From the IMG/VR virus record IMGVR_UViG_2585427740_000001: a stretch of DNA of 23,852 bases; one strand, given 5' to 3'. This document shows, piece by piece, positions 1,331 to 23,852 of the stretch. Origin of the DNA: a virus. Lineage: Duplodnaviria > Heunggongvirae > Uroviricota > Caudoviricetes. The notes beneath the pieces were generated by a model. It was given only the letters and a program-made list of their open reading frames with translations. It was not told the DNA's origin and made no database searches. The position numbers were made by a program, and so were the translations under genes. Numbering within the stretch: position 1 is the stretch's first letter; each line of letters starts with the position of its first letter.

Positions 1331-1418
1331 GCTTTTTTATACTAAGTTGGCATTATAAAAAAGCATTGCTTATCAATTTGTTGCAACGAACAGGTCACTA
1401 TCAGTCAAAATAAAATCA
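1331..1418. other. attL: lambda-type attL: 15-bp common core GCTTTTTTATACTAA (1331-1345) followed by the P' arm with arm-type Int sites, running up to the int stop codon
   Basis: Exact lambda att core read directly in the sequence. The downstream AT-rich arm (GTTGGCATTATAAAAAAGCATTGCTTATCAATTTGTTGCAACGAACAGGTCACTATCAGTCAAAATAAAATCATTATTTG) matches the recalled attP P' arm. The bacterial side is contiguous with the ybhC 3' flank. Confidence 0.9.
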
Positions 1419-7655: not shown

Positions 7656-7911
7656 ATTTAATCCAATCAATCAGAAAGACGAGTAATCATAGAGGTACTA
7701 TCACCCGGGTAACTATTGCTATTATGAACGGATAGGATAGAGGCTTCAATAACATATGCATCAAGTATGATGGAATATGTAGGTGAAAATGACTTGTGTC
7801 AAATTTGTGGAAATGAGTACCATGTTTCTCTGAAATTGATGTCGTTAATGGCTAGTGATAGTGAACTTTTTTACTTTATAATTCCTTTGGTTATAACAAT
7901 AAGGTAAATTT

Positions 7912-8921: not shown

Positions 8922-9111
8922 CATACCTTTTGATTTTGTAAAATCAATTCGTAATAATAAAGTCATCGGAGCTTGAACAACTCCGGTGACTTCTGCGCTA
9001 AACGGGGACGTTTATGCGCACATACAATCCAAACTCTCTTCTCCCTTCACAGATGCAGAAATGCACCTGCGATTTTTTGCATCCAGCGTCTGACCTCTGC
9101 GGAGGTGAAGC

Positions 9112-9567
9112 GTGAACCTACCACAAGATGGCATCAAACTGCATCGCGGTAACTTCACCGCTATCGGCCAGCAGATCCAGCCTTATCTGGAGGACGGAAA
9201 ATGCTTTCGCATGGTGCTTAAACCGTGGCGTGAGAAACGCAGTCTTTCCCAGAATGCACTCAGCCACATGTGGTACAGCGAAATCAGTGAATACCTCATC
9301 AGCAGGGGGAAATCGTTCGCTACCGCAGCATGGGTAAAAGATGCTCTCAAACACACATACCTCGGTTATGAAACCAAGGACCTGGTTGATGTCGTAACCG
9401 GCGAAATCACTACTATCCAGTCGTTACGCCATACCTCCGATCTTGATACCGGAGAGATGTATATCTTCCTGTGTAAGGTTGAAGCCTGGGCGGTGAATAT
9501 TGGCTGCCACCTGACTATTCCGCAGAGCTGCGAGTTCCAGCAGCTCCGCGACAAACAGGAGGCGTAA
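9112..9567 (+). CDS. ybcN: NinB/YbcN-family DNA-binding protein
   Basis: 151-aa ORF from GTG with GGAGGTGA RBS. Translation matches DLP12 YbcN as recalled; sits in the NinB position of the nin region. Confidence 0.85.
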
Positions 9568-9737
9568 TGGCTACACCGCTTATTCGTGTCATGAACGGAC
9601 ACATCTACAGAGTACCAAATCGTCGTAAGCGTAAACCGGAGCTGAAGCCTTCCGAAATACCAACACTGCTCGGATATACCGCCAGCCTGGTTGATAAAAA
9701 ATGGTTGCGACTGGCAGCAAGGAGGAGTCATGGCTGA
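9567..9737 (+). CDS. ninE: NinE-family protein (56 aa)
   Basis: Hand translation [59 protein letters not shown] overlaps the ybcN stop (TAATG). Confidence 0.7.
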   Translation: MATPLIRVMNGHIYRVPNRRKRKPELKPSEIPTLLGYTASLVDKKWLRLAARRSHG

Positions 9738-10020
9738 TTTGAGAAAAGCAGCGCGTGGTCGGGAATGCCAGGTAAGAATCCCTGGCGTATGTAATGGCAA
9801 CCCTGAAACGTCTGTACTGGCACATATCCGGCTGACTGGATTGTGCGGCACCGGTACGAAACCGCCAGACCTGATTGCCACCATTGCATGTTCTGCCTGC
9901 CACGACGAAATCGACCGCCGCACACATTTTGTCGATGCTGCATATGCAAAAGAATGCGCGCTGGAAGGTATGGCGAGAACACAGGTTATCTGGCTGAAAG
10001 AGGGGGTTATTAAGGCGTGA
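9730..10020 (+). CDS. ybcO: YbcO-family protein (DUF1364, putative nuclease), 96 aa
   Basis: ORF-track ORF 9691-10020; likely start [14 protein letters not shown]... at ATG 9730 with AGGAGG upstream. Cys/His-rich motif. Matches DLP12 YbcO as recalled. Confidence 0.8.
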
Positions 10021-10379
10021 ATACCTACAGCATCACATTACCCTGGCCTCCGAGCAATAATCGCTATTACCGCCATAATCGCGGGCGCACACACATCAGC
10101 GCAGAAGGGCAGGCATACCGCGATAACGTCACCCGAATCATTAAAAACGCAATGCTGGATATCGGCCTGGCTATGCCAGTGAAAATCCGTATTGAGTGCC
10201 ACATGCCGGATCGCCGTCGCCGTGACCTGGATAATCTGCAAAAAGCCGCTTTTGACGCACTCACCAAAGCAGGTTTCTGGCTGGATGATGCTCAGGTCGT
10301 TGATTACCGCGTTGTGAAGATGCCTGTTACCAAAGGTGGGAGGCTGGAACTGACCATCACCGAAATGGGGAATGAATGA
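10017..10379 (+). CDS. rusA: RusA Holliday-junction resolvase
   Basis: 120-aa translation ([26 protein letters not shown]...) matches RusA as recalled. Confidence 0.95.
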
Positions 10380-10516
10380 TGTTTGAGTTTAATATGGCAG
10401 AACTTCTTCGCCACCGCTGGATGCGCCTGCGCTTATATCGTTTCCCCAGTTCTGTTTTGACCGATTACCGAATACTGAGGAATTACGCCAAAACCCTGAC
10501 AGGAGCAGGAGTATGA
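10376..10516 (+). CDS. ylcG: YlcG-family small protein (46 aa)
   Basis: Hand translation [49 protein letters not shown] overlaps the rusA stop. Confidence 0.6.
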
Positions 10517-10601
10517 AGTCAGAGATAACAATCAACTAATACTGTTTTATTGATTTTTGCTTGTAATTGGCGTTCTGGTCTGATTTTTGTGGAGTAAGTT
10601 G

Positions 10602-10985
10602 ATGCGTGATATTCAGATGGTTCTTGAGCGTTGGGGAGCGTGGGCGGCTAATAATCATGAAGATGTGACCTGGTCGTCCATTGCCGCCGGTTTTAAGGGA
10701 TTAATTACTTCAAAAGTAAAATCTCGCCCGCAATGTTGTGACGATGACGCGATGATCATTTGCGGGTGCATGGCCCGTCTGAAAAAGAACAACAGCGATT
10801 TGCACGATTTATTAGTAGATTATTATGTAGTCGGTATGACATTCATGTCACTGGCAGGTAAGCATTGCTGCTCTGATGGTTATATCGGGAAAAGGTTACA
10901 GAAGGCTGAGGGTATAATTGAAGGGATGTTAATGGCATTAGATATCCGGTTAGAGATGGATATCGTTGTTAATAACTCTAATTAA
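10602..10985 (+). CDS. Q: Late-gene antiterminator Q (QuuD-like, phage 82/21 type)
   Basis: 127 aa from ATG 10602 with GGAG RBS ([24 protein letters not shown]...). Matches DLP12 QuuD as recalled. Confidence 0.9.
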
Positions 10986-11102
10986 TATGCCAATTGTTTA
11001 CTAAAAATTATTAAAAATGGGGCGTTGAGACGCCCCCAAAAATAAAGGGTAATATATAACAGAAGGTTTATATAGTTAGAAGCAAGGTTGTGCTCCTAAA
11101 GG

Positions 11103-11165
11103 AAGTGGCTTGAGGGAGCCACTTATATGTTGGGGAGGCAAAGCCTCCCGCAACATATCTTTTAG
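11103..11165 (+). terminator. Two tandem stem-loops; the second (11125-11158, ~15-bp stem) is followed by CTTTTAG; candidate tR' of the late operon
   Basis: Inverted repeats AAGTGGCT/AGCCACTT and ATATGTTGGGGAGGC/GCCTCCCGCAACATAT read directly. Lies about 140 nt downstream of Q and just past the 3' end of the convergent porin gene. Confidence 0.5.
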
Positions 11166-11173
11166 TAATCAAA

Positions 11174-12256
11174 TTAGAACTGGTAAACCATACCTACAGC
11201 AACGATATCATCGGTAGCAACGCCAGATGCTTTCGTGAAATCGCTCTTATCAATCAGGTTGATTTTGTAATCAACAAAAGTGGACATATTTTTGTTGAAG
11301 TAATAGGTTGCACCTACATCAATATATTCAACCAGGTCCTGATCACCCCACGCACCCAAGTCTTTTCCTTTAGATTGCAGGTAAGCAACGGACGGACGCA
11401 GACCGAAGTCGAACTGATATTGTGCAACTACTTCGAAGTTTTGTGCTTTGTTGGCAATATGGTTATTACCAAAAACAGTCATGTTCTGGGTTTCAGAATA
11501 GGTGGTAGCCAGATAGATGTTGTTCGCATCATATTTCAGACCAGCTGCCCATACTTCAGCATTTTGACCAGATGCATTCAGGCTGTTGTTACCGTAGATA
11601 ACCTGATTATTAGTGCGGTCAGATTTAGCATAGGTTGCACCTACACCGAATCCTTCATACTCATAAGTAGTGGAGAAACCGAAACCATCACCATTAGCTT
11701 CAGTTACGTCAGTGCGGTCATTTTTACCCTGATACTGAGCAGCAAAGTTCAGACCATCAACCAGACCAAAGAAGTCATTGTTACGATAAGTTGCAACACC
11801 TGTGGTGCGACCAGTCATGAATACATCTGTTTGGGTCCAGGTATCGCCACCGAATTCTGGCAGAACGTCGGTCCATGCACCAATATCGTATGCTACACCG
11901 TAGTTACGGCCATAATCGATGGAGCCGTAGTCACCGAATTTCAGGCCAGCGAAGGCAAGACGGGTTTTATCTTTGGAGGAACCTTGAGATTCAGCGCGGT
12001 TGCCTTTGAATTCATATTCCCACTGACCGAAACCAGTCAGTTGATCGTTGATTTGGGTTTCACCTTTGAAGCCAAGACGGGCATAAGTAGTATCACCATC
12101 ATCTGCATCATTAGAGGAGAAGTAGTGCTTAGCATTAACTTTCCCGTACAGATCCAGCTTGTTACTGTCTTTATTATAAATTTCAGCTGCCTGAGCAGAC
12201 ATCGCCATCAGTACTGATGCAGCTACAGCAGAAATTGCCACTGTTAATTTTTTCAT
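11174..12256 (-). CDS. nmpC: General porin of the OmpC/OmpF/NmpC(Lc) family
   Basis: 360 aa from [23 protein letters not shown] (signal peptide) to the C-terminal ...VGMVYQF. Resembles NmpC/Lc as recalled. The ORF-track ORF extends 20 codons further upstream, judged spurious. Confidence 0.92.
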
Positions 12257-12682
12257 CGTGAGCCCTTTTTTTGAACTATTATTAAAAAATGATGTCACTG
12301 CGCGATAAATATTCATCTAATCAATGTGATTATTTCAAGATGTAAGTTTTGGTTTCTCATTTGATTTGTGAAGTAGATCTCTATTTTTATCTGAACTTTT
12401 TCTATCGAATCCTATTCATGGCTCTTGGCTGAATAAAAATAAATCTATTAGCCAATTTATATTAATGGCTGTTATTTATAAGTGCTCTATAATTTGAAGA
12501 TTCAATTTAAACCAGCTAAAAATAACGCTGGAAATTATTTGTTGGTTATTTGTTGAGATTTGCTTATGTATTTGTAGTGGTGTTTTCAATACTCGGTAGC
12601 ATTCTCGCAAATATCATTTAGTGGTTTACGTACGTAAAAAATTGGTTATGCTGTTAAGAGTGGTTACTTCGTCACACAGCTT

Positions 12683-12716
12683 AAACCCGCCGTCGAGCGG
12701 GTTTTTCCATTTTTTG
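12683..12716 (+). terminator. Intrinsic terminator-like hairpin (AAACCCGC-CGTCGA-GCGGGTTT) followed by TTCCATTTTTT
   Basis: Perfect 8-bp GC-rich stem and T-tract read directly. Lies in the AT-rich region between the porin start and S. Confidence 0.5.
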
Positions 12717-12843
12717 AGTCTCGATATTAGCTGATAACCCAATACCTGAGTTATTCACTGACTCCGAGTCTGTTACGTTTCTGCTTTTTTGCGATACGTT
12801 GTATTCCCTCAATTTACACCCGCTTTGTCTGCGAGGTGGGGTT

Positions 12844-13059
12844 ATGAAATCCATGGATAAGTTAACAACGGGTGTCGCCTATGGCACCTCAGCAGGTAGT
12901 GCCGGTTACTGGTTTTTACAGCTGCTCGATAAAGTCACGCCCTCACAGTGGGCAGCAATAGGTGTGCTGGGTAGCCTGGTATTTGGCCTGCTGACGTACC
13001 TGACAAACCTTTATTTCAAGATTAAAGAAGATAAGCGCAAGGCTGCGAGAGGTGAATAA
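12844..13059 (+). CDS. S: Class II holin (phage 21 S-type pinholin) with dual-start motif MKSMDK
   Basis: Translation [71 protein letters not shown] resembles S21 as recalled. Two Met codons three codons apart; two TM segments. Confidence 0.9.
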
Positions 13060-13556
13060 TGCCTCCATCATTACGAAAAGCCGTTGCTGCTGCTATTGGT
13101 GGCGGAGCAATTGCTATAGCATCAGTGTTAATTACTGGCCCAAGTGGTAACGATGGTCTGGAAGGTGTCAGCTACGTACCATACAAAGATATCGTTGGCG
13201 TATGGACTGTATGTCACGGACACACCGGAAAAGACATCATGCTCGGTAAAACGTATACCAAAGCAGAATGCAAAGCACTCTTGAATAAAGACCTTGCCAC
13301 TGTCGCCAGACAAATTAACCCGTACATCAAAGTCGATATACCGGAAACAACGCGCGGCGCTCTTTACTCATTCGTTTACAACGTGGGTGCTGGCAATTTC
13401 AGAACATCGACGCTTCTTCGCAAAATAAACCAGGGCGATATCAAAGGCGCATGTGATCAGCTACGTCGCTGGACATATGCTGGCGGTAAGCAATGGAAAG
13501 GTCTCATGACTCGTCGTGAGATTGAGCGTGAAATCTGTTTGTGGGGTCAGCAATGA
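13059..13556 (+). CDS. R: SAR endolysin (T4-lysozyme-like muramidase with N-terminal signal-anchor-release domain)
   Basis: 165 aa with a Gly/Ala-rich weakly hydrophobic N-terminus ([20 protein letters not shown]) followed by a lysozyme-like core. Start overlaps the holin stop. Confidence 0.92.
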
Positions 13557-14014
13557 ACAGAGTAACCGCGATTATCTCCGCTCTGGTTATCTGCATCATC
13601 GTCTACCTGTCATGGGCTGTTAATCATTACCGTGATAACGCCATTACCTACAAAGCCCAGCGCGACAAAAATGCCAGAGAACTGAAGCTGGCGAACGCGG
13701 CAATTACTGACATGCAGATGCGTCAGCGTGATGTTGCTGCGCTCGATGCAAAATACACGAAGGAGTTAGCTGATGCGAAAGCTGAAAATGATGCTCTGCG
13801 TGATGATGTTGCCGCTGGTCGTCGTCGGTTGCACATCAAAGCAGTCTGTCAGTCAGTGCGTGAAGCCACCACCGCCTCCGGCGTGGATAATGCAGCCTCC
13901 CCCCGACTGGCAGACACCGCTGAACGGGATTATTTCACCCTCAGAGAGAGGCTGATCACTATGCAAAAACAACTGGAAGGAACCCAGAAGTATATTAATG
14001 AGCAGTGCAGATAG
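13553..14014 (+). CDS. Rz: Rz inner-membrane spanin subunit
   Basis: 153 aa, N-terminal TM then coiled coil. ATG overlaps the R stop (ATGA). Confidence 0.85.
13773..13955 (+). CDS. Rz1: Rz1 outer-membrane lipoprotein spanin subunit, embedded in the +1 frame of Rz
   Basis: 60 aa with lipobox VVGCTS and proline-rich segment (PPPPPAW...PPPDW). AGGAG RBS 8 nt upstream. Lies entirely inside Rz. Confidence 0.8.
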
Positions 14015-14045
14015 AGTTGCCCATATCGATGGGCAACTCATGCAA

Positions 14046-14339
14046 TTATTGTGAGCAATACACACGCGCTTCCAGCGGAGTATAAATGCCTAAAGTAATA
14101 AAACCGAGCAATCCATTTACGAATGTTTGCTGGGTTTCTGTTTTAACAACATTTTCTGCGCCGCCACAAATTTTGGCTGCATCGACAGTTTTCTTCTGCC
14201 CAATTCCAGAAACGAAGAAATGATGGGTGATGGTTTCCTTTGGTGCTACTGCTGCCGGTTTGTTTTGAACAGTAAACGTCTGTTGAGCACATCCTGTAAT
14301 AAGCAGGGCCAGCGCAGTAGCGAGTAGCATTTTTTTCAT
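14046..14339 (-). CDS. bor: Bor lipoprotein (serum-resistance-associated)
   Basis: 97-aa translation MKKMLLATALALLITGCAQQTFTVQNKPAAVAPKETITHHFFVSGIGQKK... matches lambda Bor as recalled. Confidence 0.92.
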   Translation of the reverse strand: MKKMLLATALALLITGCAQQTFTVQNKPAAVAPKETITHHFFVSGIGQKKTVDAAKICGGAENVVKTETQQTFVNGLLGFITLGIYTPLEARVYCSQ

Positions 14340-14629
14340 GGTGTTATTCCCGATGCTTTTTGAAGTTCGCAGAATCGTATGTGTAGAAAATTAAACAAAC
14401 CCTAAACAATGAGTTGAAATTTCATATTGTTAATATTTATTAATGTATGTCAGGTGCGATGAATCGTCATTGTATTCCCGGATTAACTATGTCCACAGCC
14501 CTGACGGGGAACTTCTCTGCGGGAGTGTCCGGGAATAATTAAAAACGATGCACACAGGGTTTAGCGCGTACACGTATTGCATTATGCCAACGCCCCGGTG
14601 CTGACACGGAAGAAACCGGACGTTATGAT

Positions 14630-15040
14630 TTAGCGTGGAAAGATTTGTGTAGTGTTCTGAATGCTCTCAGTAAATAGTAATGAATTATCAAAGGTATAGT
14701 AATATCTTTTATGTTCATGGATATTTGTAACCCATCGGAAAACTCCTGCTTTAGCAAGATTTTCCCTGTATTGCTGAAATGTGATTTCTCTTGATTTCAA
14801 CCTATCATAGGACGTTTCTATAAGATGCGTGTTTCTTGAGAATTTAACATTTACAACCTTTTTAAGTCCTTTTATTAACACGGTGTTATCGTTTTCTAAC
14901 ACGATGTGAATATTATCTGTGGCTAGATAGTAAATATAATGTGAGACGTTGTGACGTTTTAGTTCAGAATAAAACAATTCACAGTTTAAATCTTTTCGCA
15001 CTTGATCGAATATTTCTTTAAAAATGGCAACCTGAGCCAT
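14630..15040 (-). CDS. ybcV: YbcV-family protein (DUF1398)
   Basis: 136 aa from [24 protein letters not shown]... matching DLP12 YbcV as recalled. The ORF-track ORF extends to 15163; the upstream 41 codons are judged non-coding. Confidence 0.8.
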
Positions 15041-15325
15041 TGGTAAAACCTTCCATGTGATACGAGGGCGCGTAGTTTGCATTATCGTTTTTATCGTTTC
15101 AATCTGGTCTGACCTCTTTGTGTTTTGTTGATGATTTATGTCAAATATTAGGAATGTTTTCACTTAATAGTATTGGTTGCGTAACAAAGTGCGGTCCTGC
15201 TGGCATTCTGGAGGGAAATACAACCGACAGATGTATGTAAGGCCAACGTGCTCAAATCTTCATACAGAAAGATTTGAAGTAATATTTTAACCGCTAGATG
15301 AAGAGCAAGCGCATGGAGCGACAAA

Positions 15326-15532
15326 ATGAATAAAGAACAATCTGCTGATGATCCCTCCGTGGATCTGATTCGTGTAAAAAATATGCTTAATAGCACCATT
15401 TCTATGAGTTACCCTGATGTTGTAATTGCATGTATAGAACATAAGGTGTCTCTGGAAGCATTCAGAGCAATTGAGGCAGCGTTGGTGAAGCACGATAATA
15501 ATATGAAGGATTATTCCCTGGTGGTTGACTGA
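15326..15532 (+). CDS. ybcW: YbcW-family small protein (68 aa)
   Basis: Translation [40 protein letters not shown]... matches YbcW as recalled. Confidence 0.75.
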
Positions 15533-15696
15533 TCACCATAACTGCTAATCATTCAAACTATTTAGCCTGTGACAGAGCCAACACGCAGTCTGTCACTGTC
15601 AGGAAAGTGGTAAAACTGCAACTCAATTACTGCAATGCCCTCGTAATTAAGTGAATTTACAATATCGTCCTGTTCGGAGGGAAGAACGCGGGATGT

Positions 15697-15891
15697 TCAT
15701 TCTTCATCACTTTTAATTGATGTATATGCTCTCTTTTCTGACGTTAGTCTCCGACGGCAGGCTTCAATGACCCAGGCTGAGAAATTCCCGGACCCTTTTT
15801 GCTCAAGAGCGATGTTAATTTGTTCAATCATTTGGTTAGGAAAGCGGATGTTGCGGGTTGTTGTTCTGCGGGTTCTGTTCTTCGTTGACAT
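15697..15891 (-). CDS. ylcI: YlcI-family protein (DUF3950), 64 aa
   Basis: Translation MSTKNRTRRTTTRNIRFPNQMIEQINIALEQKGSGNFSAWVIEACRRRL... matches YlcI as recalled. Confidence 0.75.
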   Translation of the reverse strand: MSTKNRTRRTTTRNIRFPNQMIEQINIALEQKGSGNFSAWVIEACRRRLTSEKRAYTSIKSDEE

Positions 15892-16059
15892 GAGGTTGCC
15901 CCGTATTCAGTGTCGCTGATTTGTATTGTCTGAAGTTGTTTTTACGTTAAGTTGATGCAGATCAATTAATACGATACCTGCGTCATAATTGATTATTTGA
16001 CGTGGTTTGATGGCGTAGATGCACGTTGTGACATGTAGATGATAATTATTATCATTTTT

Positions 16060-16279
16060 CGGGTCCTTTCCGGCGATCCGACAGGTTACGGGGCGGCGAC
16101 CTCGCGGGTTTTCGCTATTTATGAAAATTTTCCGGTTTAAGGCGTTTCCGTTCTTCTTCGTCATAACTTAATGTTTTTATTTAAAATACCCTCTGAAAAG
16201 AAAGGAAGCGACAGGTGCTGAAAGCGAGCTTTTTGGCCTCTGTCGTTTCCTTTCTCTGTTTTTGTCCGTGGAATGAACA
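16060..16279. other. cos: cos site: cosN with 12-nt cohesive end GGGCGGCGACCT at 16091-16102, followed by cosB (terminase small-subunit binding region) up to the nu1 start
   Basis: Sequence ...CGACAGGTTACG GGGCGGCGACCT CGCGGGTTTTCGCTATTTATGAAAATTTTCCGGTTTAAGGCG... matches the recalled lambda genome ends joined at cos. Confidence 0.88.
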
Positions 16280-16795
16280 ATGGAAGTCAACAAAAAGCAG
16301 CTGGCTGACATTTTCGGTGCGAGTATCCGTACCATTCAGAACTGGCAGGAACAGGGAATGCCCGTTCTGCGAGGCGGTGGCAAGGGTAATGAGGTGCTTT
16401 ATGACTCTGCCGCCGTCATAAAATGGTATGCCGAAAGGGATGCTGAAATTGAGAACGAAAAGCTGCGCCGGGAGGTTGAAGAACTGCGGCAGGCCAGCGA
16501 GGCAGATCTCCAGCCAGGGACTATTGAGTACGAACGCCATCGACTTACGCGTGCGCAGGCCGACGCACAGGAACTGAAGAATGCCAGAGACTCCGCTGAA
16601 GTGGTGGAAACCGCATTCTGTACTTTCGTGTTGTCGCGGATCGCAGGTGAAATTGCCAGTATTCTCGACGGGATCCCCCTGTCGGTGCAGCGGCGTTTTC
16701 CGGAACTGGAAAACCGACATGTTGATTTCCTGAAACGGGATATCATCAAAGCCATGAACAAAGCAGCCGCGCTGGATGAACTGATACCGTTATGA
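16280..16795 (+). CDS. nu1: Terminase small subunit Nu1, C-terminally altered (171 aa; the last ~10 residues of lambda Nu1 are replaced by a single L and a stop)
   Basis: Translation MEVNKKQLADIFGASIRTIQNWQEQGMPVLRGGGKGNEVLYDSAAVIKWYAERD... matches lambda Nu1 through ...AALDELIP, then diverges at about 16789. Confidence 0.9.
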   Translation: MEVNKKQLADIFGASIRTIQNWQEQGMPVLRGGGKGNEVLYDSAAVIKWYAERDAEIENEKLRREVEELRQASEADLQPGTIEYERHRLTRAQADAQELKNARDSAEVVETAFCTFVLSRIAGEIASILDGIPLSVQRRFPELENRHVDFLKRDIIKAMNKAAALDELIPL

Positions 16796-16817
16796 GTTTA
16801 CGGATACGCTGGGGCTG

Positions 16818-17222
16818 GTGACGTCATTCAGCTATGCAGGAGACAAGAATCGCCAGCTGACCCATTACAGCGATACCCGCTGGCATGAAGATTCCGTTCG
16901 TAACCGCTGGTTCAGCGTAATGGCGGGGCCGTCTGTGCGCGTGAATGAATGGTTCAGCGCGTATGCGATGGCGGGTGTGGCTTACAGCCGTGTGTCGACT
17001 TTCTCCGGGGATTATCTCCGCGTAACTGACAACAAGGGGAAAACGCACGACGTGCTGACCGGAAGTGATGACGGTCGCCACAGCAACACGTCTCTGGCGT
17101 GGGGAGCTGGCGTGCAGTTTAACCCGACCGAATCCGTGGCCATTGATATTGCTTATGAAGGCTCCGGCAGTGGCGACTGGCGCACTGACGGTTTCATCGT
17201 GGGTGTCGGTTATAAGTTCTGA
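16818..17222 (+). pseudogene. lom: lom (Ail/Lom/PagC-family outer-membrane protein), 3' fragment lacking signal peptide and proper start
   Basis: C-terminal ...SVMAGP...AYAMAGVA...IAYEGSGSGDWRTDGFIVGVGYKF matches the lambda Lom C-terminus as recalled. Upstream sequence is nu1; no ATG or signal peptide. Confidence 0.85.
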
Positions 17223-17250
17223 TTAGCCAGGTAACACAGTGTTATGACAG

Positions 17251-17276
17251 CCCGCCGGTTCAGGCGGGCTTTTTTG
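17251..17276 (+). terminator. Rho-independent terminator (GCCCGCC-GGTTCAG-GCGGGC followed by TTTTTT)
   Basis: Perfect GC-rich hairpin plus T6, read directly. Immediately downstream of the lom fragment. Confidence 0.85.
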
Positions 17277-17286
17277 TGGGGTGAAT

Positions 17287-20250
17287 ATGGCAGTAAAGAT
17301 TTCAGGTGTACTGAAAGACGGCACAGGAAAACCGGTACAGAACTGCACAATCCAGCTGAAAGCAAAACGTAACAGCACCGCGGTGGTGGTGAACACGCTG
17401 GCCTCAGAAAATCCGGATGAAGCCGGGCGTTACAGCATGGACGTTGAGTACGGTCAGTACAGCGTTATTCTGTTGGTGGAAGGATTCCCGCCGTCACATG
17501 CCGGGACCATCACCGTGTATGAAGATTCCCGACCCGGTACGCTGAATGATTTTCTCGGTGCCATGACGGAGGATGATGCCCGTCCGGAGGCTCTGCGCCG
17601 TTTTGAACTGATGGTGGAAGAGGTGGCGCGTAACGCGTCCGCAGTGGCACAGAACACGGCAGCCGCGAAGAAGTCAGCCAGTGATGCCAGCACATCTGCC
17701 AGTGAGGCGGCAACTCATACAACCGATGCTGCAGGCTCAGCTCGTGCCGCCAGCACGTCAGCCGGACAGGCTGCATCATCTGCTCAGTCAGCATCTTCCA
17801 GCGCAGGAACGGCATCAACAAAGGCCAGTGAAGCATCGAAAAGTGCTGCTGCTGCAGAGTCCTCAAAAAGCGCGGCAGCTACCAGTGCCGCTGCGGCGAA
17901 AACGTCAGAAACGAATGCGGCAGCGTCACAACAATCAGCAGCCACTTCTGCATCCGCCGCGACCACGAAGGCGTCAGAAGCTGCCACCTCAGCCCGGGAT
18001 GCGGCGGCCTCAAAAGAGGCGGCAAAATCATCAGAAACGAGCGCAGCCTCGAGCGCCAGTAGTGCAGCCTCCTCGGCAACAGCGGCAGGAAATTCCGCGA
18101 AGGCGGCAAAAACGTCCGAGACGAACGCTAAGTCTTCTGAGACGGCAGCAGCACAGAGTGCCTCCGCAGCAGCAGACTCAAAAACAGCGGCTGCCTCATC
18201 TGCCAGCGCCGCGTCAACAAATGCCGGGCAGGCCTCAGCCAGTGCCACCGCTGCCGGAAAGTCGGCAGAAAGCGCCGCATCATCCGCTTCAACAGCCACA
18301 ACGAAGGCTGGCGAAGCCACTGAACAGGCCACGGCAGCAGCGAGGTCAGCTTCCGCAGCGAAGACATCCGAAACGAACGCGAAAGCGTCGGAAACCAGCG
18401 CAGAATCCTCAAAAACGGCTGCCGCATCGTCAGCCAGTTCGGCGGCGTCATCGGCATCATCGGCGTCTGCTTCAAAAGATGAGGCGACCAGACAGGCGTC
18501 AGCAGCGAAGGGCAGCGCCACGACGGCATCCACGAAGGCGACAGAGGCAGCTGGCAGTGCGACGGCGGCAGCTCAGAGCAAAAGTACGGCGGAATCCGCG
18601 GCAACGCGCGCCGAGACAGCAGCAAAACGGGCAGAGGATATTGCATCCGCCGTGGCGCTTGAGGATGCGAGCACGACGAAAAAGGGGATAGTACAGCTCA
18701 GCAGTGCGACTAACAGCACTTCCGAGTCACTGGCGGCAACGCCAAAAGCCGTTAAGGCCGCGTATGAGCTGGCTAACGGGAAATACACCGCACAGGATGC
18801 AACGACAGCACAGAAAGGGATAGTTCAGCTTAGCAACGCGACCAACAGCACATCTGAAATGCTGGCGGCAACGCCAAAGTCGGTAAAGGCAGCCTATGAC
18901 CTTGCTAACGGGAAATATACTGCTCAGGACGCTACGACAGCACAAAAAGGAATTGTCCAGCTCAGTAGTGCAACCAACAGCGCATCTGAAACGCTTGCCG
19001 CGACACCGAAAGCAGTGAAAGCAGCTAATGATAATGCGAATGGTCGGGTACCTTCTGCCCGTAAGGTGAATGGTAAGGCGCTTTCAGCGGATATAACACT
19101 GACGCCGAAAGATATTGGTACGCTTAACTCAACAACAATGTCATTCAGCGGTGGTGCTGGTTGGTTCAAATTAGCAACGGTAACCATGCCACAGGCGAGT
19201 TCTGTTGTTTCAATTACGTTGATTGGTGGCGCGGGATTTAACGTGGGGTCACCTCAACAGGCAGGTATATCTGAACTTGTTTTGCGTGCAGGTAATGGTA
19301 ATCCGAAGGGGATTACTGGTGCTTTATGGCAGCGCACATCGACAGGGTTTACAAATTTTGCCTGGGTCAATACATCTGGTGATACTTACGATATTTACGT
19401 TGCAATCGGAAATTATGCGACTGGTGTAAATATTCAATGGGATTATACCAGTAATGCCAGCGTGACGATTCATACGTCACCAGCATATTCTGCTAATAAG
19501 CCGGAAGGGTTAACGGACGGTACAGTTTATTCACTCTATACGCCATCAGAGCAGTTTTATCCGCCTGGCGCACCAATCCCGTGGCCATCAGATACCGTTC
19601 CGTCTGGCTATGCCCTGATGCAGGGGCAGACTTTTGACAAATCTGCATACCCGAAACTTGCAGCCGCTTATCCGTCAGCCGTGATCCCTGATATGCGTGG
19701 CTGGACGATTAAGGGCAACCCCGCCAGTGGTCGTGCCGTATTGTCTCAGGAACAGGACGGCATTAAATCGCACACCCACAGCGCCAGCGCATCCAGTACG
19801 GATTTGGGGACGAAAAACACATCGTCGTTTGATTACGGAACCAAATCCACGAATAACACCGGGGCGCATACCCATAGTATTAGCGGGACTGCAAATAGTG
19901 CCGGTGCGCACCAACACAAGAGTTCCGGTGCATTTGGTGGCACGAACACGAGCATTTTCCCTAATGGTTATACCGCGATTTCAAATCTAAGCGCGGGGAT
20001 TATGAGCACAACAAGCGGTAGTGGCCAGACTCGTAATGCAGGGAAGACATCATCAGATGGTGCTCATACCCACTCGCTGTCCGGCACTGCTGCAAGCGCA
20101 GGCGCACATGCACATACTGTCGGTATTGGTGCTCATACGCACTCCGTTGCGATTGGCTCACACGGACACACCATCACCGTTAACGCTGCTGGTAACGCGG
20201 AAAACACCGTCAAAAACATCGCATTTAACTATATTGTGAGGCTTGCATAA
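17287..20250 (+). CDS. stf: Side tail fibre protein Stf (about 987 aa from ATG 17287), with long Ala/Ser/Thr-rich low-complexity region, three ~43-aa tandem repeats and a His-rich C-terminal domain
   Basis: N-terminus [30 protein letters not shown]... and C-terminus ...[11 protein letters not shown] match lambda Stf as recalled. ORF-track ORF begins 2 codons upstream at GTG. Confidence 0.92.
18673..19050 (+). repeat. Three tandem ~129-132-nt repeats inside stf (unit encodes [19 protein letters not shown](S/M)[12 protein letters not shown](E/D)[11 protein letters not shown])
   Basis: Repeated peptide and nucleotide blocks starting near 18673, 18802 and 18934, read directly. Confidence 0.8.
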
Positions 20251-20831
20251 TGGCATTCAGAATGAGTGAACAACCACGGACCATAAAAATTTATAATCTG
20301 CTGGCCGGAACTAATGAATTTATTGGTGAAGGTGATGCATATATTCCGCCTCATACAGGTCTGCCAGCAAACAGTACCGATATTGCACCGCCAGATATTC
20401 CGGCTGGCTTCGTGGCTGTTTTCAACAGTGATGAGTCATCGTGGCATCTTGTTGAAGACCATCGGGGTAAAACAGTTTATGACGTGGCATCAGGGGACGC
20501 GTTATTTATTTCTGAACTCGGCTCATTACCGGAAAATGTTACCTGGTTATCCCCGGAAGGGGAGTTTCAGAAGTGGAACGGCACAGCCTGGGTGAAGGAT
20601 ACGGAAGCAGAAAAACTGTTCCGGATCCGGGAGGTGGAAGAAACAAAAAACAGCCTGATGCAGGTAGCCAGTGAGCATATAGCGCCGCTTCAGGATGCTG
20701 TGGATCTGGAGATCGCAACGGAGGAAGAAACCTTGTTGCTGGAAGCCTGGAAAAAGTATCGGGTATTGCTGAACCGTGTTGATACGTCAACTGCACAGGA
20801 TATTGAATGGCCAGTAGCACCTATAGGGTAA
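20250..20831 (+). CDS. tfa: Tail fibre assembly chaperone Tfa
   Basis: 193-aa translation [51 protein letters not shown]... matches lambda Tfa as recalled. ATG overlaps the stf stop. Confidence 0.95.
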
Positions 20832-21689
20832 ATTCGTAATGATTACCTAAATACGTTATTCTTTTGTTCAAAAAGTGATTTTGCTATAGATAGGGAGTAT
20901 GTTCTTGGATTAAGAATAAAAATCGCCATGAAAGAGCTTCATGGCGAGTACATAAACGTACAAAATGTGATGAAAGTAGAGTGGCGTAAGCCACTATATT
21001 AAGATGTGACAATAGCGAAGAAAAGTAAATAACATTTTATGGACGTTTAATTGTTAATTATAAAAACTAGAGTGCCCGATATTGTTTACCTTGCTTTAAA
21101 ATAATGTACTCAAACCAAATTTTTGAGCTAAAAGCTCAAATAATATAAATGCAATAATAATGTTTAATAAGACAATTAGCTTGCTTTGTATTTTCATTTC
21201 GGAATACTGTTAAGTAACTTTGATGACCCTAACAATAGATCGGAATTTTCTTAGAGTCAATGGTCACTGTTTTTGCTTGCAAAGCAAATGTTTTGGTGGT
21301 TATAAGTTGTCTTAATATAGTCACGCATGCAACTTGTTCCATGCGGAGATTAAAGATTGGAATATAACGCTAAGATGGAATTAAATTACATTTGCAATAA
21401 TCAATTTATTATTACTCAATAATTACCGATATTATTATTGTAAATTAATCATTAGAGTGCAAAAAGAAATGTAACGGCAAAATAAGAGGACGATAGCTGA
21501 GAAAAAAGCGTGCTTTCCCAATCTGGGGCAAATCACGTCTGAATGACACCTGAAAACAGGTGGTAGCCTCAAGAAGGCTTGGAATATTCTTCTTTAATGT
21601 TATGTAATTCATTGATTTTTCGTGTACGATTTAAAGACATTTATTCCAAGAAAAATTTTTAACTCTTTGATTTTTCGACTCTGTATCAT

Positions 21690-21751
21690 CGGTCTCGAAA
21701 ACCGGAGTAGGGGCAACTCTACCGGGGGTTCAAATCCCCCTCTCTCCGCCA
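21690..21751 (+). other. 3' fragment (~62 nt) of tRNA-Ser(CGA): anticodon stem-loop, variable arm, T-arm and acceptor 3' end with CCA; 5' half absent
   Basis: CGGTCTCGAAAACCGGAGTAGGGGCAACTCTACCGGGGGTTCAAATCCCCCTCTCTCCGCCA matches the recalled 3' portion of E. coli serU-type tRNA-Ser. The preceding sequence cannot form the acceptor/D arms. Confidence 0.75.
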
Positions 21752-22335
21752 CTTTATCAATGACTTATCTCCCGACTTCCCGCCTTGCTTTTCCTAAACA
21801 GAACAATCGTAGAATATTCTTGAAGGGTTAGATCGTCACTGTTTTCTGTTCGATACTGTGACATTCAGCACTTGATTCGCTATGGATCTGACAGGAAGGT
21901 TTTGAGCGAAAATTTGCAGTTATTCAGTCGTTTTCTTATCGGTCACCATTATTCTTTTAGACATTGATCCTACAAAGCTGCCGCAAAGTTGGTGGTGGGA
22001 ACTGAAGTTGCGTAGAGAAGGGGTCAATACCCGGAGGCAAACATGGGCTGGCAAAAGTGTAGCGGTATTAGGCGCAGCTATTTAGCCTAGTTATGTTTTA
22101 TGAAAACTTGATATCATATAAGTGTCTTACTTATTGGCTGTAAATAAGTTTTTCCTAAGGAATTGTTTCTTGAGTATCATTTGTAACTGTAACGGAATTT
22201 ATAATCCTTTGCTTTATTGTTACGGTATTTTTTATCACACCCTATTTTTTATGTGGTTTTTTATACTGAAGTTTGGCAAAGTGAACTTTATATGCATATA
22301 CTTCATCCTGGTTTCAGTTAAGTTGGGTGGATGAT

Positions 22336-23079
22336 ATGGCAACTACATGTTCAGTTATATTGATTTTGGAGTCCTTTGATGTTTATTTCGGAAAAGAGAG
22401 TGTGTTTCTGGAGAGAGGTTCATCTGTACTTGTCGACTCTAGCTCTAGAGATTTTTTCCTGACATATCCTGAAAGAGTGATAGTGGCGGATTTTGGCGCT
22501 GAGTTTATTAGTCGCTATTTGAAAGCTAATAACTTAAGGGATATTTCTGATTGTAGGGAATATCCATCTTATTTAAAAATAAACTTTGCTGACTTCAGTT
22601 TAATTAAAGGATTAATTAGTTGGGCTAATCACTGTGCTGAATACATAGAAATTTTTGATGAGTCTATTGCTTTTACATGTCTCTCTGCATTTTCTTCTGA
22701 AAAACAATTTGGAGTATTTCTGTTTGAATGTTTGAAAAGCACAGGGGCTAAAGTTAAAACGATTATTCATACGGATTTATCTGCACCATGGCGTCTTAAG
22801 GATATATCATCAAGATTATATCTCAGCGAAAGTTTACTAAAGAGGAAATTGAAAGAAGAGGGGGTATCATTCAGTAAGATCATACTTGATGAGAGGATGC
22901 AAATGGCTGAATATTTACTCAGCACTCGTTGTTATCCTATTAGTAAAGTAGCTAAGGTCTGTGGTTATGCCAGTGTCTCATACTTTACTTATGTATTTAG
23001 ACGTTATTTTGGTGTTTCTCCAAGTCAATACTCTCAGAGCAGTTCAGAAAGTAAAATTCTTACTCACCAGGGAATCTGA
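22336..23079 (+). CDS. AraC/XylS-family transcriptional regulator (AppY/EnvY-like), about 247 aa
   Basis: C-terminal AraC-type HTH signature (...WRLKDISSRLYLSESLLKRKLKEEGVSFSKIILDERMQMAEYLL...KVCGYASVSYFTYVFRRYFGVSPSQY). Low-GC gene; in-frame GTG 3 codons upstream is the ORF-track start. Confidence 0.85.
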   Translation: MATTCSVILILESFDVYFGKESVFLERGSSVLVDSSSRDFFLTYPERVIVADFGAEFISRYLKANNLRDISDCREYPSYLKINFADFSLIKGLISWANHCAEYIEIFDESIAFTCLSAFSSEKQFGVFLFECLKSTGAKVKTIIHTDLSAPWRLKDISSRLYLSESLLKRKLKEEGVSFSKIILDERMQMAEYLLSTRCYPISKVAKVCGYASVSYFTYVFRRYFGVSPSQYSQSSSESKILTHQGI

Positions 23080-23590
23080 TCATTGTTCTTGCCCCCTTAT
23101 TTCCAGACAGGGGGTGTATCTTAAGTTAACGTTACCCGCTGACGTCGATATTCTCGCGGAGAGCGATAACCCAACGCACTGTGCGGATGGTTTTCATTGT
23201 AATGTTCGATCGCCACTGCAAGATTATGCAATGCCGTTCTTACATTCGGTTTCGGCATGAACGCGATGTAGTCTTCCTTCATCGTTTTCACGAACCTTTC
23301 TGCCATTCCATTACTCTGAGGACTGCTGATTGCCGTTGTGCAGGGCTCCAGATTCAACTCTCTGGCGAACTGCCATGTTTCATGCGCTCTATACGCTGAA
23401 CCGTTATCTGTCAGCCACTGGATGGACTGTTCCGGTACTTTATCGCCAAAGCGTTTTTCTATCGCTCCTAACATGACATCCTGCACTGTCGCTTTATCGT
23501 AACCTCCCGTGCTTGCGGCCCAGTCTATGGCTTCACGATCGCAACAGTCCAGGGCGAACGTAACACGCAGTTTTGAATCGCCACGGGTTT
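23077..23590 (-). mobile_element. IS2-like (IS3 family) element fragment: terminal region plus 3' part of the transposase orfB
   Basis: Terminal sequence TTGCCCCCTTATTTCCAGACA resembles the recalled IS2 end. The orfB C-terminal translation matches IS2 InsD as recalled (...TVQDVMLGA...WLTDNGS.Y...[12 protein letters not shown]). Confidence 0.7.
23121..23585 (-). pseudogene. IS2-like transposase orfB, C-terminal ~155 codons only (5' part removed)
   Basis: ORF-track ORF 23121-23486 continues open upstream to a TAA at about 23586 (…[34 protein letters not shown]…). No orfA or N-terminal orfB upstream on this strand. Confidence 0.75.
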
Positions 23591-23630
23591 AACAGACACC
23601 TCAGAGTCATTTAAGATGGCTTAAAGAGAG

Positions 23631-23852
23631 GTGCCCATGAGCGGTAAGCGTTATCCCGAAGAGTTTAAAACTGAAGCAGTCAAACAGGTTGTTGATCGCG
23701 GTTATTCTGTTGCCAGCGTTGCAACACGTCTCGATATCACCACCCACAGCCTTTATGCCTGGATAAAGAAGTACGGTCCGGATTACTCCACTTTTTCATC
23801 AAGCCAATCCGCCCACCACTGCATCATTTCTCTGCGCTTATCGAGATACTGA
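23631..23852 (+). CDS. IS3-family transposase OrfA-like HTH protein (N-terminal part typical; C-terminus atypical, possibly disrupted)
   Basis: MSGKRYPEEFKTEAVKQVVDRGYSVASVATRLDITTHSLYAWIKKYGPD resembles IS3-family OrfA HTH domains. RBS AGAGAGGTGCCC-ATG. Opposite orientation to the IS2-like orfB fragment. Confidence 0.6.
   Translation: MPMSGKRYPEEFKTEAVKQVVDRGYSVASVATRLDITTHSLYAWIKKYGPDYSTFSSSQSAHHCIISLRLSRY

Follow-up and report, generated by a model that had tools for sequence, protein, structure and literature searches.

The AraC/XylS-type regulator gene at the distal end of the prophage analysed here is very probably an intact allele of patE, which codes for a prophage-borne activator of acid resistance and was originally reported from E. 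coli O157:H7 EDL933 (Z0321 of prophage CP-933H). The window (the whole stretch of DNA analysed, 23,852 nucleotides) is E. coli chromosome, and strain RM10410 is 100% identical to it. The reading frame runs on the plus strand from an ATG at 22336 to a TGA at 23077–23079 and codes for 247 aa; an in-frame GTG is present 9 nt upstream of the ATG, which is the start used in RefSeq. The protein is identical to WP_000246059.1 at 245 of 247 positions, the two differences being G131E and R235S (E131 and S235 in the window). WP_000246059.1 is the sole AraC-family regulator in the thrW prophage of the O157:H7 strains EDL933 and Sakai (ECs_0287, prophage Sp1) and of other O157 strains; for EDL933 the comparison was done on the newer record, plus Sakai. 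In O157 genomes a patE query matched a single place by blastn. The near-identity to WP_000246059.1 and the place of the latter in the EDL933 thrW prophage therefore argue strongly that the window gene is patE, and, as expected of orthologues, the likeness to PatE (Z0321) extends over the full length of the protein and the two genes have flanking DNA in common. Both the gene and its role in acid stress have already been published for the near-identical O157 gene. The features of the window that bear on the gene and its surroundings are compiled in Table 1.

Table 1. Position and supporting evidence of the features discussed in the text (window numbering).
Feature	Position	Strand	Evidence
Exact lambda att core (attL), GCTTTTTTATACTAA, 0 mismatches	1331..1345	+	Motif search
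3' part of tRNA-Ser (serU), anticodon stem to CCA	21690..21752	+	Read by eye; matches annotated tRNA-Ser genes
~280 bp of core chromosome normally just downstream of serU	21753..22029	+	Match to the serU–yodB interval
56-nt stub, right end of an IS630-family element	22030..22085		Match to L015
Lambdoid Q-to-lysis intergenic remnant	22092..22335	+	Homology to L005
Promoter-like site, TTGGCA-18-TATACT	22273..22302	+	10/12 consensus match, 34 nt upstream of the ATG
Very probable patE allele, AraC/XylS regulator WP_000246057.1	22336..23079	+	ORF, Pfam, RefSeq, 245/247 vs WP_000246059.1
Spacer TCAT between stop codon and IS terminus	23080..23083		Comparison of ISEc48 ends, Sakai record
ISEc48 remnant (491/1336 bp): terminal repeat and 3' part of transposase orfB	23084..23574	-	Independent copies, Pfam, RefSeq/Sakai
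Left-end fragment of a second IS3-family element, N-terminal part of orfA	23574..23792	+	Pfam, matches to IS3-family transposases
intS-like prophage integrase fragment, runs off the window end	23780..23852		90–96% matches inside annotated intS genes

Family assignment of the window protein

In line with membership in the AraC/XylS family, the protein has at its C-terminus a DNA-binding domain (~100 aa) that comprises two helix-turn-helix motifs. The Pfam model HTH_18 matched residues 158–234 (profile positions 2–79 of 80, E = 1.3e-15), HTH_AraC matched in two stretches (E = 1.3e-16), and the closest solved structure was the DNA-binding domain of GadX (3mkl, residues 138–238 aligned, E = 2e-23). 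The best NCBIfam model was that of YdeO (NF007407, residues 1–234), with a score of 148.8 bits as against an equivalog cut-off of 348. Identities to the chromosomal acid-resistance regulators YdeO, GadX and GadW were 33%, 27% and 33%, respectively; these proteins have the same reported target island as PatE (the acid-fitness island). The window protein differs from them in a shorter C-terminal tail and in being prophage-borne, the three others being encoded on the chromosome proper. A preliminary description of this DNA had called the gene a prophage AraC/XylS regulator in an appY-like position, which Pfam, RefSeq and synteny bear out, and had likened the product to AppY and EnvY. The latter comparison holds at the level of the family and fails as a statement of closer kinship: identity to AppY, alignable over the full length, was 29%, and identity to EnvY was 39% over the C-terminal half only.

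Published function of PatE and predicted activity of the window allele

Z0321 was described as a "putative regulator (prophage CP-933H)" in O-island 8 with 6-fold RpoS-dependent expression (PMC2907692). In a review (PMC10877973), z0321 is named patE and its product is stated to activate gadB, gadC, gadE and hdeAB, with its action on the hdeA promoter mapping between -132 and -45, and six LEE genes are stated to show lower expression with PatE. PatE, PsrB and AppY have been grouped as prophage AraC regulators that feed into acid resistance, and AppY has likewise been reported to activate acid-resistance genes (PMC10057817). The suggestion, made when the sequence was first described, that prophage AraC regulators can rewire acid-stress regulons is thus published for PatE itself (PMC10057817, PMC10877973). 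Overexpression of a gene designated a PatE homologue was reported to increase the acid survival of E. coli Nissle (preprint 10.1101/2025.08.01.668021).

By analogy with the O157 allele, which has other amino acids at positions 131 and 235, we infer the following activity. The gene would be transcribed from a promoter of its own just upstream of the coding sequence; its product would bind AT-rich promoter DNA through the two C-terminal helix-turn-helix motifs and turn on the glutamate-dependent acid-resistance island (gadE, gadBC, hdeAB), leading to better survival at low pH. The promoter-like site listed in Table 1 has identical hexamers and spacing at the equivalent place of an 82%-identical, IS-free locus (L005). 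It was taken as the candidate promoter of patE because of its match to the consensus and its conservation in L005. Just upstream of it, at 22255–22269, 13 of 15 positions agree with the lambda att core (GGTTTTTTATACTGA), which, with two mismatches allowed in AT-rich DNA, is probably due to chance. An Rfam search of 20500–23852 at a permissive E-value returned nothing on patE.

Sequence constraint and distribution of patE alleles

Comparison with the IS-free homologues gave dN/dS values of 0.17 (L005) and 0.33 (L004), which indicates purifying selection. Among the recent, IS-flanked alleles the ratio of nonsynonymous to synonymous differences was 2:0 against the O157 allele and 8:1 against a third allele, counts that are compatible with relaxed constraint and too small to decide. 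The window allele has a glutamate at position 131 (codon 22726–22728, FLFECL), where all nine other aligned subfamily members, O157 PatE included, have a glycine (FLFGCL). Residue 131 is located in the segment just before the DNA-binding domain, and the G131E exchange could alter PatE activity. At least 80% of the patE gene query was found in 654 of 5426 complete E. coli genomes (~12%), and the window and O157 alleles were each present on at least 1000 contigs.

Several variants of patE were encountered in the databases, among them P0001 and P0006 (307–308 aa) and P0002 and P0004 (306 aa). In some variants a frameshift near the 3' end makes the frame read about 60 residues into the ISEc48 stub, and in others a small deletion fuses an upstream open reading frame (22122–22334) to patE. 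P0006 was found on 16 contigs, one of them of 1.34 Mb.

It is improbable that the window allele is a decaying relic, left between IS stubs without a terminator, carrying G131E, no longer selected and of little use to the host. The exchange of a glycine found in all nine other subfamily members, the 8:1 and 2:0 counts among recent alleles, the loss of the native terminator (see below) and the partial and frameshifted copies in the databases would fit such decay, but the patE reading frame is intact in hundreds of complete genomes as well as on the at least 1000 contigs mentioned above. Moreover, flanking phage genes have been deleted and patE with its proximal promoter has been kept in every context, which suggests retention, and the near-identical O157 allele, whose IS junction is no different, has been described as expressed and active (PMC10877973, PMC2907692).

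A chimeric prophage at the lambda attachment site

In RM10410 the region lies between ybhC and ybhB/bioA, i.e. at the lambda attachment site. In addition to the attL core within the window, an attR copy with one mismatch was found next to ybhB, about 225 nt past the window end. The prophage is defective. Positions 8928–16789 (~8 kb) are 96–97% identical to DLP12 of K-12 and contain the DLP12-like genes ybcN, rusA, quuD, a porin gene, essD, rrrD, bor and nohD. The porin gene (window ~12377–13459; L001 10478–11560, minus strand) is annotated as an intact "porin OmpC"; its counterpart in K-12 DLP12, nmpC, is disrupted by an IS5. Positions 16784–22029 are colinear, at 94–97% identity, with the right arm of a lambdoid prophage that occupies serU in another strain (L024), in which the order is tail fibre, tfa, 859 nt of non-coding DNA, attR and the serU host flank. 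On the strength of this colinearity, the window prophage is a chimera: its body, at att-lambda, is DLP12-like, and its right arm is that of a serU-type prophage. Chromosomal DNA of the serU locus (280 bp of flank plus attR) is thus embedded in a prophage at another locus, att-lambda.

Two further observations concern the DNA around the tail-fibre-assembly gene (20250–20831). A full-length match to the Rfam family IS009 (RF02111; 218 bits, gathering score 117) falls inside this gene at 20593–20791 on the plus strand. The ~660 nt that follow it (20832–21494, 30% GC) have no annotated gene in any genome listed and are kept at 95–99% identity at prophage ends in many E. coli.

The patE gene is at the distal end of the prophage, after the tail-fibre-assembly gene. 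The preliminary description had placed it in the same relative position as appY in DLP12, which is correct given the 96–97% identity to DLP12 over 8928–16789, and in AT-rich DNA, which agrees with a GC content of 0.30–0.40 across 20800–23000 compared with ~0.47–0.53 on either side (patE DNA, ~34%). AppY of K-12 DLP12 resembles the window protein in being an AraC/XylS protein of ~248 aa encoded after tfa, in AT-rich DNA, at the distal end of the prophage. However, the two proteins are 29% identical, neither the genes nor their flanks are homologous at the DNA level, no IS adjoins appY, and the evolutionary origin is another one. Neither the high identity nor the tfaX-appY-ompT synteny expected of an AppY orthologue was found. 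Orthology with AppY was therefore rejected on account of the 29% identity and the missing DNA homology past tfa, and appY is a positional analogue only.

We regard it as very improbable that the gene is the AppY orthologue of this DLP12-like prophage and, unlike PatE, controls hya, cbdAB-appA and genes of anaerobic growth and phosphate starvation. The shared place after the tail-fibre-assembly gene, in a prophage so close to DLP12 over ~8 kb, and the full-length architecture common to both proteins speak for it, but the window protein is 99% identical to PatE as against 29% to AppY, nothing in 20832–23852 is homologous at the DNA level to the tfaX-appY-ompT end of DLP12, and the source of the right arm is a serU-type prophage rather than DLP12. 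In addition, AppY and PatE have both been reported as activators of acid-resistance genes (PMC10057817), and so their regulons may overlap functionally.

The patE stop codon is native and is followed by an ISEc48 terminus

The reading of the gene as an intact patE allele is in agreement with the 3' ends of its homologues. P0008 (79% identical, 247 aa), whose gene immediately precedes a holin gene in an IS-free setting (L004), has the same last codon and stop as the window gene (Ile-stop, ATC TGA): the aligned 3' ends read ...ACT CAC GAG GAA ATC TGA in L004 and ...ACT CAC CAG GGA ATC TGA in the window, and blastn homology between the two stops exactly at 23079. P0007 (84% identical, 244 aa), which is encoded between the Q antiterminator and holin/lysozyme/Rz genes of an IS-free lambdoid prophage (L005), ends three codons before the window protein. 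Relatives with 51–54% identity, among them P0011, P0013 and P0016 of E. coli, end 3–4 residues earlier, and none is longer than the window protein. The DNA-binding domain is complete by both the HTH_18 profile and the GadX alignment.

An IS end of the IS3 family does follow the gene, as had been noted from the sequence alone, but its supposed coincidence with the stop codon was not confirmed. The terminus in the window reads TGTTCTTGCC... and starts at 23084 (TG = 23084–23085). Among six independent ISEc48 ends with unrelated flanks, the common sequence starts only at TGTTCTTGCCCCC and begins TGTTCTTGCCCCCTTATTTCC, and each of three complete ISEc48 copies measures 1336 bp, starts with TG..., finishes with ...CA and has exact direct repeats flush with its ends. 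The same 4-nt gap is seen in the curated record of O157 Sakai, where ECs_0287 extends to 309844 and the feature "ISEc48 partial" starts at 309849. The TCAT/ISEc48 junction recurs in each of the three patE allele groups, one of which has TAA instead of TGA at the stop codon. Since independent copies place the IS terminus at 23084, the stop, 4 nt upstream of the IS, is the native one and the C-terminus is intact, as judged from these alignments. A truncated and possibly crippled protein, whose C-terminus was taken away and whose stop was supplied by the IS, as had been proposed, is hardly credible: only the 4-nt distance between stop codon and IS end and the existence of frameshifted variants that read on into the IS (P0001 and P0006) favour it, whereas the IS terminus is not at the TGA, the IS-free P0008 ends at the same residue with an identical ATC TGA, an outcome that the preliminary description had itself named as refuting truncation, the remaining homologues end earlier, never later, and the DNA-binding domain is matched to profile position 79 of 80 and, in the GadX alignment, to residue 238. 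Homologues longer than the window protein in IS-free surroundings and a stop codon supplied by the IS, as would mark an IS-truncated gene, were not found.

The element is assigned to ISEc48, a relative of IS2 within the IS3 family, and is not IS2 itself: the IS2 end reads TGGATTTGCCCCTATATTTCCAGACA, unlike the terminus in the window. Annotated ISEc48 copies match the terminal repeat (TGTTCTTGCCCCCTTATTTCCAGACA) and the 3' portion of orfB at 96–99% identity, and Pfam rve_3/rve was found on an open reading frame of the minus strand within the remnant (23121–23486). The 491 bp that remain contain the terminal repeat and the C-terminal rve_3/rve part of the transposase. These matches stop at 23574; the other end has been replaced by a fragment of another IS3-family element. 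The complete reference copies have target duplications of 5 or 15 bp. The copy in L006 (1507–2842) has a 5-bp repeat, GATAC, as expected for an IS2-like element, and the copies in the plasmid loci L008 (1505–2840) and L009 (1503–2838) have exact 15-bp repeats (ATTAAACTCCACATC and ATGTAATTCTCTAAT).

The second IS3-family element starts with TGAATCGCC at 23574 and is inserted into, or abuts, the ISEc48 remnant. HTH_Tnp_1 (Pfam) was found on an open reading frame at 23631–23852, and annotated IS3-family transposases match query positions 1–219. The fragment resembling intS with which the window ends is labelled in RefSeq as a partial hypothetical protein.

In both IS-free loci, L004 and L005, an intrinsic terminator (CCAGCA-loop-TGCTGG followed by a U-run) is located 60–80 nt past the stop. 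A terminator of this native type is absent downstream of patE in the window, where the terminator scan found no terminator-like site until 23363. The ISEc48 end was considered as a substitute terminator and rejected, as its CCCCC...GGGGG hairpin folds no better than shuffled sequences (z = +0.43). With the native terminator gone and no substitute provided by the IS, the insertion has, as far as can be told from these comparisons, changed the 3' untranslated region and cost the lysis genes, and not the protein.

Anatomy, origin and spread of the patE cassette

The gene is part of a cassette of 1.87 kb that consists of the serU fragment, the 280 bp of serU flank, the IS630 stub, patE and the ISEc48 stub. 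ARAGORN found no tRNA gene in the window, because the serU fragment at 21690–21752 is partial; the sub-threshold Rfam hits (a plastid 3'UTR family, tmRNA and sX4) all fell on this fragment and were discarded. The fragment is, to judge from its context in serU prophages, the fossil attR core of a serU-integrated prophage and forms the left edge of the cassette shared with O157. The DNA that follows (21753–22029) is 97% identical to the serU–yodB interval of K-12 and most E. coli, and 22030–22085 shows an 89% match to the end of an IS630-family transposase gene and its terminal repeat on a plasmid (L015). Homology to L005 begins at 22092, which corresponds to L005 position 7752 in the 3' end of the Q gene (which ends at 7760). 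A strong terminator-like hairpin of L005 (7813–7835) has no counterpart in the terminator scan of the window.

The segment 21689–23557 is 99.3% identical to prophage Sp1 of O157 Sakai over 1869 bp, the homology starting at 21689 and taking in the upstream region, the stop/IS junction and the ISEc48 stub. A third allele group, found in other strains at the thrW/paoD locus, matches 21690–23334 with 98.7% identity. In O157 (CP-933H/Sp1) as in the window, patE is the last gene of a defective lambdoid prophage. Apart from G131E and R235S, the O157 situation differs from that in the window in that the prophage there is integrated at thrW and here is a DLP12-like one at att-lambda (ybhC/ybhB), in that the arm left of the serU att core is of the pinE/GIY-YIG type in thrW prophages and here a serU-type tail-fibre arm, and in that the ISEc48 stub is cut at the equivalent of 23557 there and at 23574 here; in total, the right edge of the stub has three different cut points among the contexts of the cassette. 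The shared junctions and differing outer arms place the two IS insertions and the fusion to the serU flank before the spread of the cassette.

The gene order at the IS-free loci is Q, the AraC gene, holin, lysozyme and Rz in L005, and the AraC gene followed by holin in L004. Homologues of patE without IS thus sit exactly where the Q-lysis morons are found (the position of stx in Stx phages), downstream of Q and a terminator-like hairpin and upstream of holin; in the window, by comparison, both the Q side and the lysis side have been lost and patE has been relocated to the prophage end. The L005 prophage has further late-region cargo between its lysis cassette and its terminase genes, namely a TrkH-family gene and a ParB_N/TAGT gene pair (10992–14270).

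For the order and mechanism of the rearrangements we infer the following scenario. The patE gene would have started out in a lambdoid phage, as a moron flanked by the Q antiterminator and the lysis genes. Insertions of an IS630-family element just upstream of the gene and of ISEc48 4 nt past its stop would have followed, and subsequent deletions would have taken away the phage genes to either side together with the greater part of the two ISs. The outcome would be a 1-kb segment with the coding sequence and proximal promoter of patE and without the native terminator, which became joined to 280 bp of serU flank and is now at the far end of unrelated defective prophages, at att-lambda in the window and at thrW in O157. 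Candidate routes for the movement of the cassette are aberrant excision of serU prophages and inter-prophage recombination, which may also have acted together. One possible but doubtful reading is that the cassette is a fossil of aberrant excision of the lambda-bio type: the IS-trimmed patE may once have been located just downstream of serU, may have been picked up together with the host flank by serU-integrating lambdoid phages, and may have been spread by them to prophage ends at att-lambda and thrW. Among the matches listed, hits under annotated intact tRNA-Ser genes end at the flank, and patE was not seen at the serU locus.

Implications

The discovery value of the gene itself is small, as the role of PatE in acid resistance of enterohaemorrhagic E. 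coli is published and the suspected IS damage is absent. The G131E exchange at a glycine conserved in the subfamily is a cheap and testable handle on PatE function. The comparisons extend patE beyond O157 to avian-pathogenic and commensal strains, and in some genomes the gene resides in a DLP12-like prophage integrated at att-lambda. If the reading as a fossil of aberrant excision were true, an acid-resistance regulator would have been cargo of specialised transduction, selected while the phage genes around it decayed. The anatomy of patE, once placed between Q and the lysis genes, suggests how a regulatory moron can persist after the loss of its phage and pass from one prophage to another.
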